Source of the DNA: an uncultured Bacteroidales bacterium
GTDB taxonomy: Bacteria > Bacteroidota > Bacteroidia > Bacteroidales > CAZLJX01
NCBI GenBank assembly: GCA_964559985.1
Contig: CAZLJX010000007.1
Location: forward strand, 13-64,012
Reading direction: 5' to 3'
Length of the DNA: 64,000 bases
Positions 39,627 to 46,842 of this stretch are shown here, in pieces. Each line of letters starts with the position of its first letter. The stretch's first letter is position 1. The notes below the pieces were generated by a model. The model saw only the letters and a program-made list of their open reading frames with translations, did no database searches and was not told the DNA's origin. Both the position numbers and the translations under genes were made by a program.

Positions 39627-41015
39627 TTATTTTCTGAATTTTTTTACAAAATCGTCTACCTCTTTAACCCCGCCCTGGTAGATAAGATAACCATTGTAGG
39701 GTTCACGCGAGGTTATTTCATCATTAACCGGGGTAAGCATCATATCAATCACTTTCTGCCGCTCGGTGGTTTGTCCCAAAACCCAGCCCAGCTTAATATA
39801 AGCGGTTTCGGGCAGCATATTCTCCAGGGGCACAATTCCTTTGGCCATCAGGTCGCGGCCGGTGTCATAAACGAACATATGGGCATAACCCCAGAGGGTT
39901 TGTACGGTCATAAAAACATGAATTCCTTTTGCTGCAGCCCTTTCGATGGCCGGGTACAAAGGCTTGTTGATATGGCCTAACCCGGTACCGGCAATGATTA
40001 TTCCTTTATAACCATTATCAATAAGCGAATCAATCATATCGGGGTGCATATTGGGATAATAATATACAATGGCAACCCTTTCCTCGAAAAAGGGTAAAAC
40101 AGTGACATTTTTATCTTTCCGCCGGTGATTGTAGTCTTCTTTAATAGGGACAACACCCTTTAATGTAACTGTTCCGACAGGAGTATCGCTGATGGTCCGG
40201 AAAGTGCTTCTGTATGAGGAATGCATTTTCCTGACCCTTGTGCCTCGGTGCAAAAAATCATATTCATCGCTGGTTGGGCCGAACATGCAAACCATTACTT
40301 CGGCAATATTTCCATGGCCGGCAGCAAAGCAGGCATGCATCAGGTTAAGGGCTGCATCGCTTGATGGCCTGTCCGATGAACGCTGCGAACCTACCAGAAT
40401 AATGGGAACCGGTGAATTCTGAACCATAAAAGTCAATGCAGCTGCGGTATGTGATAGCGTATCTGTGCCATGGGCAACCACAATGCCATCGATACCGTTT
40501 TCAATTTCACGGCCAATTGATTTTGCCAACGTTTTATATTGTTCAGGACCCATATTTTCGCTAAATACCGCAAATAATTTCTCGGTTGAAAGGTTACAGA
40601 TTTTTGCCAGTTCTGGCACCGAACCATATAATTCGCCCGGTGTAAAAGCCGGAATAACAGCACCTGTACGGTAATCAAGCCTTGAAGCAATGGTTCCGCC
40701 GGTACCAAACAGTTTTACATGGGGCAACCCTTTAGTTACCGGAAACTGTTTTTCAGGAATTTTGTAATTGGCTTTCTGGTATCCGGCTTCTTTCATTTTC
40801 AAAATAGTGCGGATATCAATGCCAATGTTATAACCTGTAGCAATTTTTAAAACCAGGTGCTGGTCATCATCGTTTTCGGCCCGTGGCAGAATAGTCCCCT
40901 TGAATTCGCCCCGTGTAGTATCAATAATGGCAGTTCCCCAGACCCTGACATTATATTTCTTGAGTGTTGCAAGAGCAGCACCTTTATAACCCTGATATAT
41001 GTCGTCCATAGCCAT
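39627..41015 (-). CDS. gatD: Glu-tRNA(Gln) amidotransferase subunit D (archaeal-type GatD, glutaminase)
   Basis: GatD-specific N-terminal domain (GTILPR...LVLKIATGYNIGI), then asparaginase core TGGTIASRLDYRTGAV, HGTDT, GSQRSSDRPSSD, HRGTRVRKMH, MLPETAYIKLGWVLG. Confidence 0.93.
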   Translation of the reverse strand: MAMDDIYQGYKGAALATLKKYNVRVWGTAIIDTTRGEFKGTILPRAENDDDQHLVLKIATGYNIGIDIRTILKMKEAGYQKANYKIPEKQFPVTKGLPHVKLFGTGGTIASRLDYRTGAVIPAFTPGELYGSVPELAKICNLSTEKLFAVFSENMGPEQYKTLAKSIGREIENGIDGIVVAHGTDTLSHTAAALTFMVQNSPVPIILVGSQRSSDRPSSDAALNLMHACFAAGHGNIAEVMVCMFGPTSDEYDFLHRGTRVRKMHSSYRSTFRTISDTPVGTVTLKGVVPIKEDYNHRRKDKNVTVLPFFEERVAIVYYYPNMHPDMIDSLIDNGYKGIIIAGTGLGHINKPLYPAIERAAAKGIHVFMTVQTLWGYAHMFVYDTGRDLMAKGIVPLENMLPETAYIKLGWVLGQTTERQKVIDMMLTPVNDEITSREPYNGYLIYQGGVKEVDDFVKKFRK

Positions 41016-41025
41016 AATTCAAAAT

Positions 41026-42996
41026 TTATTGTTTATCAATCGATTGGGATAACTCGGTCAATGGCATATTTCCCAGTGCCAGGTGTCTAAGTTGCCCCAT
41101 AATCCAGTGGTGCCTTCCGTCCACTTTAAAATTACGGCGGGTTTCATCGAATTTTTTATTCATATTTTCAATAGCACCGGTTATATCATTTACATGACGT
41201 TTGCGGAATTTTATGGTTTCAAGCACACTTTCAAAATCAAGGCTCGGATTTGAATATAAAACCGGAAGCATGTAACGGGCAAGGTTGATATGCACTTTTT
41301 TTCTGGTAAGAAATTCAAACATTTTATAAATTTTATTATAACTCACCGGACTTTTGCCTTTATACCGGCCTTCCATATTTTTCACGGTCTGGCCCATAAA
41401 GGTTCCGGCAAAACGTGGAGAAATTTCCAGCTCAGTGATCATTTTTTCAATGACCGGGAAAAGGTTTTTACTCAGAATAAAAGTATAGGTATCAGCCGGA
41501 ATCTTCCATTTTACAAGTTGTTCGTAACGTTGATGAATCAATGTCGGAACATTCTTCCTGACACGTTCAATATATTCATCTTCAAGCGGAATAGGAGCTG
41601 AATCCGTATCGGGATACATGCGGTCGGCTCCGGGTAAAACACGTTCAAAAACAGTGGTGCCATCGGGAAAAGGTTTGCGGGTTTCAGACGGAACACCGGC
41701 AAAAGCCATCCTGCATCTTTCTTCAACTGTTTCAACAGCGGTGGGGATATCGGCTTCGGGCCCCCAAAGGATAATCTGCGCATCATTGATTCCTGCCTGG
41801 GTCTTTTTTCGGATCAATTCAAATACTTCTTCTTTTTCAACAGGTTCAATATCTTCTGAACAAATCATGTTAGGTTTTTCGATACAGGCAATTACTTTAA
41901 GCCGGTTGATCAGTTCGTCATAAAAAGGTTTAGACGGCTGGGTAAAGTGTGACAAAACACCCTTAAACATTGGCAGGTTGACAGCAATAATTTTTTCCCC
42001 TCGATTAAATGCTTTATGAATATGTGGGCAAGAAAACTTCATTTTATAATAATCTGTCTCGAACCATGTCATTTTCCATTCTTCAGGATTTGACATTCTT
42101 TTCAGCAGCAATTCCCTGATATGCAGCAAAGCCCATTGTCTGAATGCTTCGTTGTGGGATAAAGCCGGTATCCATCGGTTATGTGAAACACCTTTAATTT
42201 CAACCCTTGTGCCTCCCTGGCAGCTTACATTCACATCTTCCCTGCCCGCTCCTATTCCGGTTCGTACTTTTCCGGTGCTGCGGTTCAAAAAACGAATATA
42301 CTCAGCAGCTTCCATCAATTCATCGGGAGACAACAGTTCGGGTTTTGTTACTGTTTCTATAAGCGGCATTCCCAACCGGTCGGTTTTATAAATCCGGTTA
42401 TGGCCTATATCAGAAACTTCGCGGCACGAATCTTCTTCAATGGATAATTGGATTAAACCCACCTTTTTATTCCGCAGGTTGATTTCACCCTCAACACCAA
42501 GAATTGCAGTACGCTGAAAACCAGTAGGAATACTGCCATCGAGATATTGTTTGCGGGTGATATGTACTTCGCCTACCACATTCAGTTTTGATAATAAGGT
42601 AATCTCGAGGGCTATGTCGAGTGCTTCACGATTAATTTTAAATGGCGGGGTATCGTCAATTTCGTAAGTGCAGGCAGTTTCGTTACTGATACGGTAAAAA
42701 ATATTTTTACGTGTTTTAAATTCCATCAAAGCCGTCCCGTCATACTGTCCAAGTTCTGAAAGTGCTGGCCGCATGTGCCTGATAATTTCAGCCTCAAAAT
42801 TTTCGTCATCGAAATAACGTCCTGCCGGACAACGGCAAAACAGTTTTTCCCTGGTTTTTAACTGCTGATGTACTTCAAGTCCCGATTTAAAACCAATACG
42901 GCGGTAATCTGCATCGGTAGCATTTTTACGTTCAACATAACCAACCTGTTGCCTGGTGGTACTAAAATTCTCTAATGGATTAAAAGCCGGTTCCAT
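41026..42996 (-). CDS. gatE: Glu-tRNA(Gln) amidotransferase subunit E (archaeal-type GatE)
   Basis: GLEVHQQL..KLFCRCP, RPALSELG, DGSIPTGFQRT, EEDSCR, DRLGMPLIE, DVNVS..GGTRVEIKGV, AspRS-like insertion (~aa 310-440), VPSETR..DGTT..R.LPGADRMYPDTD; 10 bp upstream of gatD. Confidence 0.93.
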   Translation of the reverse strand: MEPAFNPLENFSTTRQQVGYVERKNATDADYRRIGFKSGLEVHQQLKTREKLFCRCPAGRYFDDENFEAEIIRHMRPALSELGQYDGTALMEFKTRKNIFYRISNETACTYEIDDTPPFKINREALDIALEITLLSKLNVVGEVHITRKQYLDGSIPTGFQRTAILGVEGEINLRNKKVGLIQLSIEEDSCREVSDIGHNRIYKTDRLGMPLIETVTKPELLSPDELMEAAEYIRFLNRSTGKVRTGIGAGREDVNVSCQGGTRVEIKGVSHNRWIPALSHNEAFRQWALLHIRELLLKRMSNPEEWKMTWFETDYYKMKFSCPHIHKAFNRGEKIIAVNLPMFKGVLSHFTQPSKPFYDELINRLKVIACIEKPNMICSEDIEPVEKEEVFELIRKKTQAGINDAQIILWGPEADIPTAVETVEERCRMAFAGVPSETRKPFPDGTTVFERVLPGADRMYPDTDSAPIPLEDEYIERVRKNVPTLIHQRYEQLVKWKIPADTYTFILSKNLFPVIEKMITELEISPRFAGTFMGQTVKNMEGRYKGKSPVSYNKIYKMFEFLTRKKVHINLARYMLPVLYSNPSLDFESVLETIKFRKRHVNDITGAIENMNKKFDETRRNFKVDGRHHWIMGQLRHLALGNMPLTELSQSIDKQ

Positions 42997-43290
42997 ATTC
43001 CTATCATTAAAATTTCCGGTATAAAAAGCCGAAAAATTAAGGAATTTTTATTACAACTCATTAAAAAAGCCTGATTACTTAATCATTTAAATGCCAAAAA
43101 TTCAGGAAAAGCGGTTACGATTTTATTTGAAAACCGTAAAAAACTAAAATATAGCGCATTGGTGTCGATTCATACGGACCAATTTTCAAACACCCTGAGA
43201 CACCAAATCACTGGCAGATTATTATAATATCATCCATTATTTATGATATAAATTTTACAAGATTGTTTATGGTGATACCGTAAAAAGAAG

Positions 43291-43298
43291 TAAATTTG
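43291..43298 (+). promoter_or_regulatory. Promoter -7 element for the first gene of the caspase cassette
   Basis: TAAATTTG, 36 bp upstream of ATG 43335. Confidence 0.5.
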
Positions 43299-44062: not shown

Positions 44063-45496
44063 ATGAAAACCTATTCAACCCTGATCATTGCCCTGTTATT
44101 GGCAGGGTGCACCACTCCAAGCCGCCTGGGTGTCAATTATAAAGGAAAACAAGTGATTAACACTTTTACCACCACCATTGACAATCCGAATATTGATCTG
44201 ACGGTTTCGCCCCTTTCAAAAGAAGATAATGGATATGATGTGAAAGTTCTCAGGAAAAATTTCATTGCCAGTGTGTATAAAAACGAAAAATTATCGGGTG
44301 TTTTACAACAATTTCCGAATGCTAAAATTGAAATGGAAATTGCTGCTTCAGAAGATATTCATAGAACATGGCTGCTTGATATCCCTTTCTTTTATCCGTG
44401 TTGCGGTTATTGGCCATTAACCCCATGGTGGGGATCAACCAATTTATCGGCCCGCATGACTGTTTCAGCCCAGGGTGCTTTTTCCAGTGAATTTAATTTT
44501 ATGGCACAGGAACCATTTTTTATAGCATTATATCCCTATTACCGCGCCGGACGAATTATGACTGAAAACTATTCACTTGCCTACAATAAGCTGTTTGATC
44601 AGGTAAAAAAATATCCCTTTGATGAATTGACAGGAAAAATGAATATTCAGCCTGTTGCCATGTATCCGGGGCAAAATAAGTATTCATTTATACGAAAGTC
44701 GGACGTTGATAACAATATTCCCGAAACAGCAAAATTGAATGAAAACCGTTTTGCTCTCATTATCGGAAACGAAGATTATTCATCGCAGCAAACCGACCTT
44801 ACCACAGAAGCCAACGTCCCCTTTGCCCGCGACGATGCCAGTGCTTTTAACGAATATGCCATTAAGGTACTGGGTATACCACAGGAAAATATAACCTTTA
44901 TGCTCGATGCCACTTCAGGTAAAATGAAACAGGCTTTGGATAAAATGAATAAACTGGCCAAAAACAGCATGGGAAATGCCGAATTATTCTTTTACTACGC
45001 CGGGCATGGTCTTCCGGATGAGGTTAGCAAAGAGCCTTACCTTATTCCTGTCGATATTAGTGGTAATAATGTTGCCGATGGTATAAAACTGGAATATGTG
45101 TACCAAAAACTTACCGAATACCCAAGTAAAAATGTTACCGTTTTTCTCGATGCCTGTTTCAGTGGTGGTGCCCGAAACCAGGGACTTATTGCTGCACGTG
45201 GTGTAAAAGTGAAACCTAAAGAAAATATGGTAAAAGGAAAACTGGTGGTATTTACAGCTTCAACGGGTGAGCAGTCTTCGCTTTCGTACAAAGATAAAGG
45301 CCATGGCTTGTTTACTTATTTTTTACTTCTGAAATTGAAAGAAACTCAGGGTAATATCACTTATAAAGAATTATCGGACTACCTGATGCAACAGGTTGGC
45401 CTTAAATCAGTAATGCTCAACAATAAAGAGCAGAACCCGCAGGTCAATGTTAGTCCTGAAATTCAAAACCAATGGCAAAACTGGAAATTAAAATAA
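44063..45496 (+). CDS. Lipoprotein with C-terminal caspase-like (peptidase C14) domain
   Basis: LAGC lipobox; unknown ~190-aa N-domain; RFALIIGNEDY, FYYAGHG (catalytic His), FLDACFSG (catalytic Cys), HGLFTYFLL. Confidence 0.9.
   Translation: MKTYSTLIIALLLAGCTTPSRLGVNYKGKQVINTFTTTIDNPNIDLTVSPLSKEDNGYDVKVLRKNFIASVYKNEKLSGVLQQFPNAKIEMEIAASEDIHRTWLLDIPFFYPCCGYWPLTPWWGSTNLSARMTVSAQGAFSSEFNFMAQEPFFIALYPYYRAGRIMTENYSLAYNKLFDQVKKYPFDELTGKMNIQPVAMYPGQNKYSFIRKSDVDNNIPETAKLNENRFALIIGNEDYSSQQTDLTTEANVPFARDDASAFNEYAIKVLGIPQENITFMLDATSGKMKQALDKMNKLAKNSMGNAELFFYYAGHGLPDEVSKEPYLIPVDISGNNVADGIKLEYVYQKLTEYPSKNVTVFLDACFSGGARNQGLIAARGVKVKPKENMVKGKLVVFTASTGEQSSLSYKDKGHGLFTYFLLLKLKETQGNITYKELSDYLMQQVGLKSVMLNNKEQNPQVNVSPEIQNQWQNWKLK
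44705..45489 (+). repeat. Direct repeat copy 1 (caspase domain); copy 2 lies 1346 bp downstream
   Basis: 44705-45298 vs 46051-46644: 594 bp with 2 synonymous mismatches by eye. 45299-45394 is a diverged patch. 45395-45489 vs 46741-46835: 95 bp with 3 synonymous mismatches. Confidence 0.95.
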
Positions 45497-45507
45497 GCAC
45501 TTAGTTT

Positions 45508-46842
45508 ATGAAATGGATATGCCTATCATTATTAGCTACATTGGCAATTATATTAAGTTCTTGCGCAACAATTATATACGGCACTAAACAAACCATTTCA
45601 GTCCAGTCAGACCCCAGCGATGCCGAGGTCTATATCAATGGAAAATATTATGGAAATACACCCTGCCTGGTTTCTGTAAAACGGAAACAAAAGAAAAGCG
45701 ATATCAATGAAAAAAATGAATTACATTATATATTAAAAAAATCCGGTTATGAAGACCGGCATATCATTGATCACAGAAGAATTACATGGGCCGCTTATCT
45801 TGATGGTTACTTAAATGTTCCGTTTGGTTTATTGTTTATTGCATCCTGTGCCGGCGATCCGGAAGTAGCAGGTACCGGCTGGAGTATCGGGCTGCCAATG
45901 GTAGCATCAATTCCACTGGATATGATGACAGGTTCATTATATTCTTATAATAAACTGATTGAGGCCAACTTAAATATTGATATTTATAAAAAAATTGAAC
46001 CTGGAAATAATAAAAATGCCAAAGATTACACTTACATAAGAAACGCCGATGTTGATAACAATATTCCCGAAACAGCAAAATTGAATGAAAACCGTTTTGC
46101 ACTCATTATCGGGAACGAAGATTATTCATCGCAGCAAACCGACCTTACCACAGAAGCCAACGTCCCCTTTGCCCGCGACGATGCCAGTGCTTTTAACGAA
46201 TATGCCATTAAGGTACTGGGTATACCACAGGAAAATATAACCTTTATGCTCGATGCCACTTCAGGTAAAATGAAACAGGCTTTGGATAAAATGAATAAAC
46301 TGGCCAAAAACAGCATGGGAAATGCCGAATTATTCTTTTACTACGCCGGGCATGGTCTTCCGGATGAGGTTAGCAAAGAGCCTTACCTTATTCCTGTCGA
46401 TATTAGTGGTAATAATGTTGCCGATGGTATAAAACTGGAATATGTGTACCAAAAACTTACCGAATACCCAAGTAAAAATGTTACCGTTTTTCTCGATGCC
46501 TGTTTCAGTGGTGGTGCCCGAAACCAGGGACTTATTGCTGCACGTGGTGTAAAAGTGAAACCTAAAGAAAATATGGTAAAAGGAAAACTGGTGGTATTTA
46601 CAGCTTCAACGGGTGAGCAGTCTTCGCTTTCGTACAAAGATAAAAGTCATGGATTATTTACCTACTTCCTGTTGTTGAAGCTACAAGAATCTCAAGGTGA
46701 AGTTACATATAAAGAATTATCAGATTATCTTTCCCTAAAAGTTGGCCTCAAATCAGTAATGCTCAACAATAAAGAGCAGAACCCGCAGGTCAATGTCAGT
46801 CCTGAAATTCAAAACCAGTGGCAAAACTGGAAATTCAGATGA
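45508..46842 (+). CDS. Lipoprotein with PEGA-like N-domain and C-terminal caspase-like (peptidase C14) domain
   Basis: LSSC lipobox; ISVQSDPSDAEVYINGKYYGNTP (PEGA-like); hydrophobic hairpin; same YAGHG / DACFSG dyad as the upstream gene. Confidence 0.9.
   Translation: MKWICLSLLATLAIILSSCATIIYGTKQTISVQSDPSDAEVYINGKYYGNTPCLVSVKRKQKKSDINEKNELHYILKKSGYEDRHIIDHRRITWAAYLDGYLNVPFGLLFIASCAGDPEVAGTGWSIGLPMVASIPLDMMTGSLYSYNKLIEANLNIDIYKKIEPGNNKNAKDYTYIRNADVDNNIPETAKLNENRFALIIGNEDYSSQQTDLTTEANVPFARDDASAFNEYAIKVLGIPQENITFMLDATSGKMKQALDKMNKLAKNSMGNAELFFYYAGHGLPDEVSKEPYLIPVDISGNNVADGIKLEYVYQKLTEYPSKNVTVFLDACFSGGARNQGLIAARGVKVKPKENMVKGKLVVFTASTGEQSSLSYKDKSHGLFTYFLLLKLQESQGEVTYKELSDYLSLKVGLKSVMLNNKEQNPQVNVSPEIQNQWQNWKFR
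46051..46835 (+). repeat. Direct repeat copy 2 (caspase domain)
   Basis: See copy 1; constant offset of 1346 bp. Confidence 0.95.

Follow-up and report, generated by a model that had tools for sequence, protein, structure and literature searches.

Reviews up to 2022 describe the amidotransferase GatDE as found in archaea only (PMC2330236, PMC2811023, PMC8007984, PMC9499178), and as an archaeal signature enzyme whose evolution was tied to that of archaeal tRNA(Gln) (PMC2330236, PMC2811023, PMC9499178), which raises the question of what a gatE-gatD pair does in a bacterium. The pair lies in a 64,000-nt stretch of contig CAZLJX010000007.1 from an uncultured Bacteroidales bacterium (the window, in what follows), in which positions 41026-42996 of the minus strand translate to a 656-aa protein (P0001). 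Judged by its sequence, this protein is GatE, and with the adjacent gatD it makes up a catalytically intact amidotransferase of the GatDE type. An initial annotation had taken the departures of this GatE from the archaeal consensus as signs of a possibly changed tRNA or substrate specificity. The alignments and trees described here indicate that the departures have three sources: most are of Asgard-type ancestry, a few are changes of the bacterial clade near a putative 1-72 loop, and those in the tail and N-terminus belong to Bacteroidales alone.

The assignment of both subunits is supported by curated models and by solved structures. GatE scores 151.4 bits against PF02934, the GatB/GatE catalytic cradle domain, and it passes the equivalog threshold of TIGR00134 (388.9 bits, cut-off 319.55) and, barely, the threshold of NF003107 (460.4 bits, cut-off 456); its sequence matches in PDB are 1zq1_C (6e-83) and 2d6f_C (4e-81). 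GatD reaches 486.5 bits against TIGR02153 (cut-off 324), also matches PF00710, PF17763, and PF18195, and aligns with P. abyssi GatD (1zq1_A, E 4e-114) with the motifs TGGTIA, HGTDT, and RKMH conserved and a Thr / Thr-Asp / Lys asparaginase centre in place. Neither GatE nor GatD shows a change at any catalytic residue. Residues H15, E157, and E184 form the Mg2+/kinase site of M. thermautotrophicus GatE (PMC2330236); their counterparts H43, E187, and E214, as well as R252, D254, N256, and S258 of the third motif, are invariant among 45 aligned sequences, and the substitutions that the initial annotation had placed near the catalytic cradle affect no catalytic residue. An AlphaFold2 (AF2) model of GatE is of high confidence (predicted local distance difference test 92.8, predicted template-modelling score 0.89), and Foldseek ranks the two solved GatEs first with GatB chains lower, giving template-modelling (TM) scores, normalised by target length, of 0.84 for 1zq1_C over 508 aligned columns, 0.82 for 2d6f_D, and 0.81 for 2d6f_C. 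In the model the four-domain fold with its GatE-specific AspRS-like insertion appears to be kept, and the helical tail is present and confidently predicted.

The window pair shares with the archaeal enzymes (M. thermautotrophicus, PDB 2D6F, with tRNA(Gln); P. abyssi, PDB 1ZQ1) a two-subunit architecture encoded by adjacent genes, the GatE cradle, AspRS-like insertion, helical, and tail domains, an asparaginase-like GatD, and the catalytic residues. The window GatE is nonetheless only ~29-35% identical to the solved archaeal GatEs, and GatD is much closer to its P. abyssi counterpart (385 bits) than GatE is (282 bits). The window GatE further differs in its loop and third motif, in a tail motif that has been remodelled, and in having an additional helix at the N-terminus, and its host is a bacterium with GlnRS, AsnRS, a bacterial-type GluRS, and a U1-A72 tRNA(Gln). 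GatB of bacterial GatCAB (S. aureus, PDB 3IP4 and 2DF4), a paralogue of GatE, is a kinase/amidotransferase that carries out the same chemistry; it occurs in bacteria and recognises the U1-A72 pair in their tRNA(Gln) and tRNA(Asn), but it has a 3-10 turn and a Lys-rich tail motif, lacks the AspRS-like insertion, and partners with the amidase GatA and with GatC.

The alignment comprised 14 Bacteroidales GatEs, 35 other sequences of the bacterial clade, 83 representatives presumed to be archaeal, and six GatBs. The sequences quoted in the initial annotation are all found in the translated protein: CTYEIDDTPP (residues 109-118), RKQYLDGSIPTGFQRT (148-163), GAGREDVNVS (249-258), RMYPDTD (459-465), the N-terminal extension of ~25 residues (N-terminal sequence MEPAFNPLENFSTTRQQVGYVERKN), and the tail WIMGQLRHLALGNM, although the protein does not end with the latter, as had been stated, but continues for 12 further residues. 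The archaeal consensus given there is likewise correct for the archaeal bulk, the majority forms being CLVE.DEEPP, RK.V.DGSNT.GFQRT, GTIRQD.N.S, and RMYPETD, and the substitutions are indeed systematic, being invariant or nearly so in the 14 Bacteroidales and 35 other bacterial-clade GatEs. Most of them are not bacterial innovations, however. Heimdallarchaeota GatE (P0166) has RKQYLDGSIPTGFQRT and RMYPDTD letter for letter, along with CSYEIDETPP, and the Thor- and Odinarchaeota GatEs have CTYE.DETPP, RK.YLDGS.., and R.YPDTD. Because Asgard GatEs (three representatives compared) carry the same or nearly the same motifs, here C[ST]YE.D.TPP, RKQYLDGSIPTGFQRT, and R.YPDTD, three of the four motifs are on this alignment Asgard-type lineage marks and not adaptations to bacteria. 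Compared with the window GatE, the Asgard proteins retain GTIRQD, a first motif with DE, and a tail with RGK.DG, and they are without the long N-terminal extension. A caution follows for similar cases: most departures from the quoted consensus were here lineage marks of the donor group and not adaptations.

Trees rooted on GatB and built with FastTree and IQ-TREE place the bacterial GatEs in one clade (support 99 in FastTree, SH-aLRT 100 in IQ-TREE), sister to Heimdallarchaeota GatE (94 and 96, respectively). FastTree nests this clade among the remaining Asgard-type rows (support 88 for the group), and in IQ-TREE those rows are separate lineages on an unresolved base; the Asgard proteins, from metagenome-assembled genomes (MAGs) named Heimdall-, Thor-, and Odinarchaeota, are the nearest archaeal relatives in both. 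By these trees the window GatDE is a member of a large bacterial branch whose sister group is Heimdallarchaeota (Asgard) GatE. The named members of this branch are Bacteroidales, Latescibacteria, Aminicenantes, Planctomycetota, Myxococcales, and CSSED10-310; bacterial names are attached to only eight of the 35 non-Bacteroidales rows, the remainder being unlabelled metagenome proteins. Public databases already name proteins of this branch GatE. The closest homologues of the host GatE are in Marinifilum, Ancylomarina, Perlabentimonas, and many Bacteroidales MAGs.

Of 40 other families of the order, 13 have a GatE (55-64% identity), GatD travels along with it, and their adjacency is kept in eight of the nine loci compared. 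Persistence at this level of identity in so many families indicates long purifying selection. It would be hardly credible, then, that the pair is a functionless remnant of horizontal transfer in the course of decay; such a remnant would suit the redundancy that the system has on paper and the single in-frame stop spanned by the match in two relatives, but here both reading frames are intact, the catalytic residues are invariant over many families and phyla, and the base composition of gatE-gatD matches that of the host genome. Recent transfer is also unsupported, given the host-like composition and the identity between families. In one relative gatD is on a different contig from gatE (G021:C20:19630-20832), and in another a 410-aa open reading frame (ORF) lies between the two genes (L032, G023:C28, 7779-9011). 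Bacteroidales-type GatEs (57-60% identity) also occur on contigs of MAGs labelled Aminicenantaceae, Ignavibacteriales, Cloacimonadota, Eubacteriales, and Chitinophaga (L099, L107, L118, L095, and L081), reflecting either mis-binning or recent transfer.

As to what the enzyme acts on, we favour Glu-tRNA(Gln) with U1-A72 and A73 as the most likely substrate, used in an auxiliary or corrective route beside GlnRS, and we give this reading about an even chance. GatE would use its cradle, helical, and tail domains to bind the aminoacyl-tRNA and would phosphorylate the side-chain carboxylate with ATP/Mg2+ through H43, E187, and E214; GatD would free ammonia from Gln or Asn at its Thr / Thr-Asp / Lys centre; and the ammonia would move to GatE and amidate the activated intermediate. 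This mechanism is drawn from conserved residues and the predicted fold; the analysis shows the gene identity, the catalytic residues, the fold, the clade structure, and the tRNA and synthetase inventory of the host, from which the activity, substrate, and physiological role are inferred. We count in favour of this reading the curated cut-offs passed, the PDB matches, the well-supported bacterial clade next to Heimdallarchaeota, the invariant catalytic residues, the GatE-like fold, the gene adjacency, the long selection, and the motif identity with Asgard GatE. The host tRNA(Gln) moreover has a weak first pair (U1-A72) and a short D-loop, whereas tRNA(Glu), in the only host gene detected for it (G000:C32:15169-15241), opens its acceptor stem with a G1.U72 wobble and carries A73; the usual first pair of tRNA(Glu) is G1-C72. 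In one genome of another Bacteroidota class, only 3 nt separate the end of glnS from that of a convergent gatD-gatE operon (L195, G093:C45, 4918-9961), and this too we count in favour. In L196, from the same family, glnS is ~7.4 kb from gatE.

Several observations weigh against Gln-tRNA(Gln) synthesis. The organism is not GlnRS-free: the host GlnRS scores 746 bits, above the cut-off, and GlnRS is present in 40 of 41 genomes of the order, the host included, and in 13 of the 14 with GatE, the sole exception among the GatE carriers being an 82% complete genome (G005). The host has a single GluRS, and at the residue matching T. thermophilus Arg358 it carries Arg; the same is true of every one of the 38 GluRS sequences read, which come from genomes both with and without GatDE. 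We take this Arg to be a marker of discriminating GluRS, and by it a non-discriminating GluRS in GatDE genomes is ruled out. Because the discriminating marker is present in every sequence, no dedicated source of Glu-tRNA(Gln) is visible, and the host genes point to no evident source of mischarged tRNA. Both host tRNA(Gln) genes have U1-A72 and discriminator A73, whereas archaeal GatDE is reported to read A1-U72 of tRNA(Gln) (PMC2330236). The Bacteroidales clade sits on the longest internal branch of the GatE tree (stem 0.63-0.84), and its tail motif, here WIMGQLRHLALGNMPL, has lost the basic RG[KR] and the DG throughout the clade, in Bacteroidales only. Finally, our literature search found no papers on bacterial GatDE or its measured activity.

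The tRNA genes of the host and its relatives bear on how a bacterial GatE could recognise its substrate. Host tRNA(Asn) is U1-A72 as well, which bears out the expectation of the initial annotation for both bacterial tRNAs, and all 21 tRNA(Gln) genes from relatives, with GatDE or not, are U1-A72 (one has G73). No special or archaeal-type tRNA(Gln) was found in the GatDE genomes, and among the 38 host tRNAs detected A1-U72 occurs only in tRNA(Trp). Since the tRNA(Gln) of the host and its relatives is U1-A72, the bacterial GatE cannot be recognising the archaeal A1-U72 there. Most of the residues singled out in the initial annotation are found in an archaeal GatE clade, which is the first half of the refuting condition set in it, but they are not accompanied in the host by a tRNA(Gln) of the archaeal type. 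A tRNA(Gln)-CUG gene lies right beside the host glnS; the two genes are ~90-120 nt apart in several families, with GatDE or not (G000:C25:46632-48373; G003:C6; G004:C267).

There is one place where adaptation to U1-A72 still plausibly fits, and that is the stretch formed by the loop and third motif, GKVRTGIGAGREDVNVS. In S. aureus GatB a 3-10 turn (K183-E186) reads tRNA pair 1-72 (PMC2811023); alignment to 2df4_B puts GatE residues 242-258 at this turn, and GatE has a short basic loop where GatB has the turn. GA[GA]R[EQ]D replaces GTIRQD and KVRTG replaces KVKRG directly ahead of it, both bacteria-specific (group consensus kvkRGiGtIRQD in archaea versus VRrG.GaaRqD in bacteria), as is the change from DE to DD in the first motif. 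A broader claim, that the motif substitutions as a set adapt an archaeal enzyme to the bacterial U1-A72 identity, we regard as distinctly improbable. It would suit a host whose tRNA(Gln) is U1-A72 throughout, and the loop that replaces the GatB turn contains or adjoins the changes from GTIR to GA[GA]R and from KVKRG to KVRTG; but Heimdallarchaeota GatE has identical forms of two of the four motifs, a third differs from the Asgard forms at one or two positions, and the tail change is not seen in the GatEs of Aminicenantes, Latescibacteria, and CSSED10-310, which are assumed to face bacterial tRNAs. The interpretation given in the initial annotation thus finds only partial support, since the majority of its substitutions are inherited from Asgard; adaptation to U1-A72 stays plausible for the bacteria-specific changes by the 1-72 loop.

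The features specific to Bacteroidales are the N-terminal extension and the remodelled tail. The extension has the consensus f.P..NY..T...IGYV.RK.AT across the clade (25-28 residues) and is modelled by AF2 as a confident helix at residues 7-18; other bacterial GatEs have ~10 extra N-terminal residues, and archaeal ones none or almost none. The tail domain, which reportedly binds the tRNA D-loop (PMC2811023), carries LMG..M...RG[KR].DG in the archaeal and Asgard GatEs and in most other bacterial ones, and VGQ.M..TKGKANP in GatB, whereas the Bacteroidales consensus is hWiMGqLr..A.GNi, conserved within the clade. It is possible, if doubtful, that Bacteroidales GatDE has been repurposed for another acidic residue bound to a tRNA or a tRNA-like molecule, or for a non-translational or regulatory role, the tail and helix serving a new partner or substrate. 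The related proposition that this branch no longer serves Gln-tRNA(Gln) synthesis, and that the tail and N-terminal helix adapt the chassis to some other tRNA-linked substrate or partner, we hold just as tentatively; if true, it would explain the persistence of GatDE beside GlnRS, AsnRS, and the discriminating-type markers of GluRS and AspRS. The long stem branch, the exchange of RG[KR].DG for another motif, likewise conserved in the clade, and the conserved extension all speak for repurposing, as do the far greater divergence of GatE than of GatD (46-52% versus 65% identity to the GatDE of other Bacteroidota classes), the failure to find a non-discriminating synthetase marker, and the fact that every canonical role is already covered by GlnRS and AsnRS, to which GatCAB is added elsewhere in the phylum. 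Against it, the catalytic and pocket motifs common to the Glu-specific archaeal GatEs are intact, the four-domain tRNA-binding fold is predicted to be kept with high model confidence, no conserved operon neighbour, whether an extra gene or a tRNA, was found in the nine loci compared, and no data here point to an alternative substrate.

GatDE could instead make Asn-tRNA(Asn), as an Asp-tRNA(Asn) amidotransferase for tRNA-dependent Asn synthesis that takes over the role of GatCAB in other bacteria with GlnRS and AsnRS; we think this unlikely. The host assembly (3.57 Mb, 99% complete) has one GlnRS, one AsnRS, one bacterial GluRS, and one bacterial AspRS, and AsnA, GatB, and a true GatA were not found in it, hence no GatCAB. 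The tRNA(Asn) first pair is the same as that of tRNA(Gln), and GatB is above cut-off in 252 of 301 sampled Bacteroidota genomes and in none of the sampled Bacteroidales. AsnA and GatDE are moreover nearly exclusive across the 41 Bacteroidales families, AsnA being present in one of 15 with GatDE and in 15 of 26 without, and according to PMC4206432 Bdellovibrio, Deinococcus, and Thermus retain GatCAB together with GlnRS and AsnRS. All of this would agree with a role in Asn synthesis. However, the host already has AsnRS and five AsnB-family genes above cut-off, the insertion domain that clashes with AspRS in modelling (PMC2330236) is retained, and GatDE coexists with GatB in 12 genomes of other classes, where it would not be needed for Asn. 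The host AspRS has Leu and Lys at the positions of H31 and G83 in the non-discriminating AspRS of P. aeruginosa, and the same holds in genomes with and without GatDE (compared in genomes other than G018, G020, G027, and G037). We take Leu/Lys to be the E. coli-like, discriminating pattern; the meaning of the two positions reportedly goes back to Bernard and colleagues in 2006. On these two markers a non-discriminating AspRS in GatDE genomes is ruled out as well. The AsnA counts are uncorrected for phylogeny, since the single-gene GluRS tree lacks the resolution that independent contrasts would need, and outside the order few genomes have AsnA; the pattern may reflect function, ecology, or simply phylogeny, and we keep it only as a lead and not as proof of an Asn role.

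Whichever substrate applies, the bacterial branch contradicts the archaea-only picture, in that it is sister to Asgard GatE, faces U1-A72, and coexists with GlnRS, AsnRS, and, elsewhere, GatCAB. GatDE, GatB, GlnRS, and AsnRS occur together in 12 Bacteroidota genomes of other classes (G081, G093, G097, G137, G141, G145, G184, G192, G208, G232, G268, and G283), which thus encode the direct route plus two indirect routes. The branch raises the questions of how GatDE reads tRNA, why an apparently redundant amidotransferase is kept, and how the two routes to Gln-tRNA evolved, and the cultured hosts Marinifilum, Ancylomarina, and Perlabentimonas make questions about GatDE directly testable.

Table 1. 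Features of the gatE-gatD locus, in window coordinates
Feature	Coordinates	Strand	Description
gatD	39627..41015	-	462-aa asparaginase-type glutaminase subunit (P0002); start 10 nt past the gatE stop
gatE	41026..42996	-	656-aa tRNA-dependent kinase/amidotransferase subunit; cradle domain, AspRS-like insertion, helical domain, YqeY-like tail
Tail-domain motif WIMGQLRHLALGNM	41065..41106	-	Residues 631-644; in place of the conserved LMG..M...RG[KR].DG
Loop and third motif GKVRTGIGAGREDVNVS	42223..42273	-	Residues 242-258; position of the S. aureus GatB 3-10 turn
Mg2+/kinase-site stretch	42355..42870	-	Contains H43, E187, E214, aligned to M. thermautotrophicus H15, E157, E184
N-terminal extension	42913..42996	-	Residues 1-28; specific to the Bacteroidales clade, conserved in 14 clade members
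Intergenic region upstream of gatE, divergent	42997..43295	.	299 nt, presumed promoter

The gatE and gatD genes (window 39627-42996, minus strand) form a single two-gene operon (Table 1), and downstream of gatD on the same strand are a Wzz-like gene and then an O-antigen-ligase gene. The 299-nt region upstream of gatE yielded no Rfam leader or riboswitch and no clear Bacteroidetes TAnnTTTG element, and a look for regulatory RNA, terminator, and promoter signals at the operon found nothing usable. Just past a 216-aa ORF that is divergent from gatE are two adjacent ORFs of 477 and 444 aa (window 44063-46842, plus strand), which belong to the same similarity family and are tandem paralogues.

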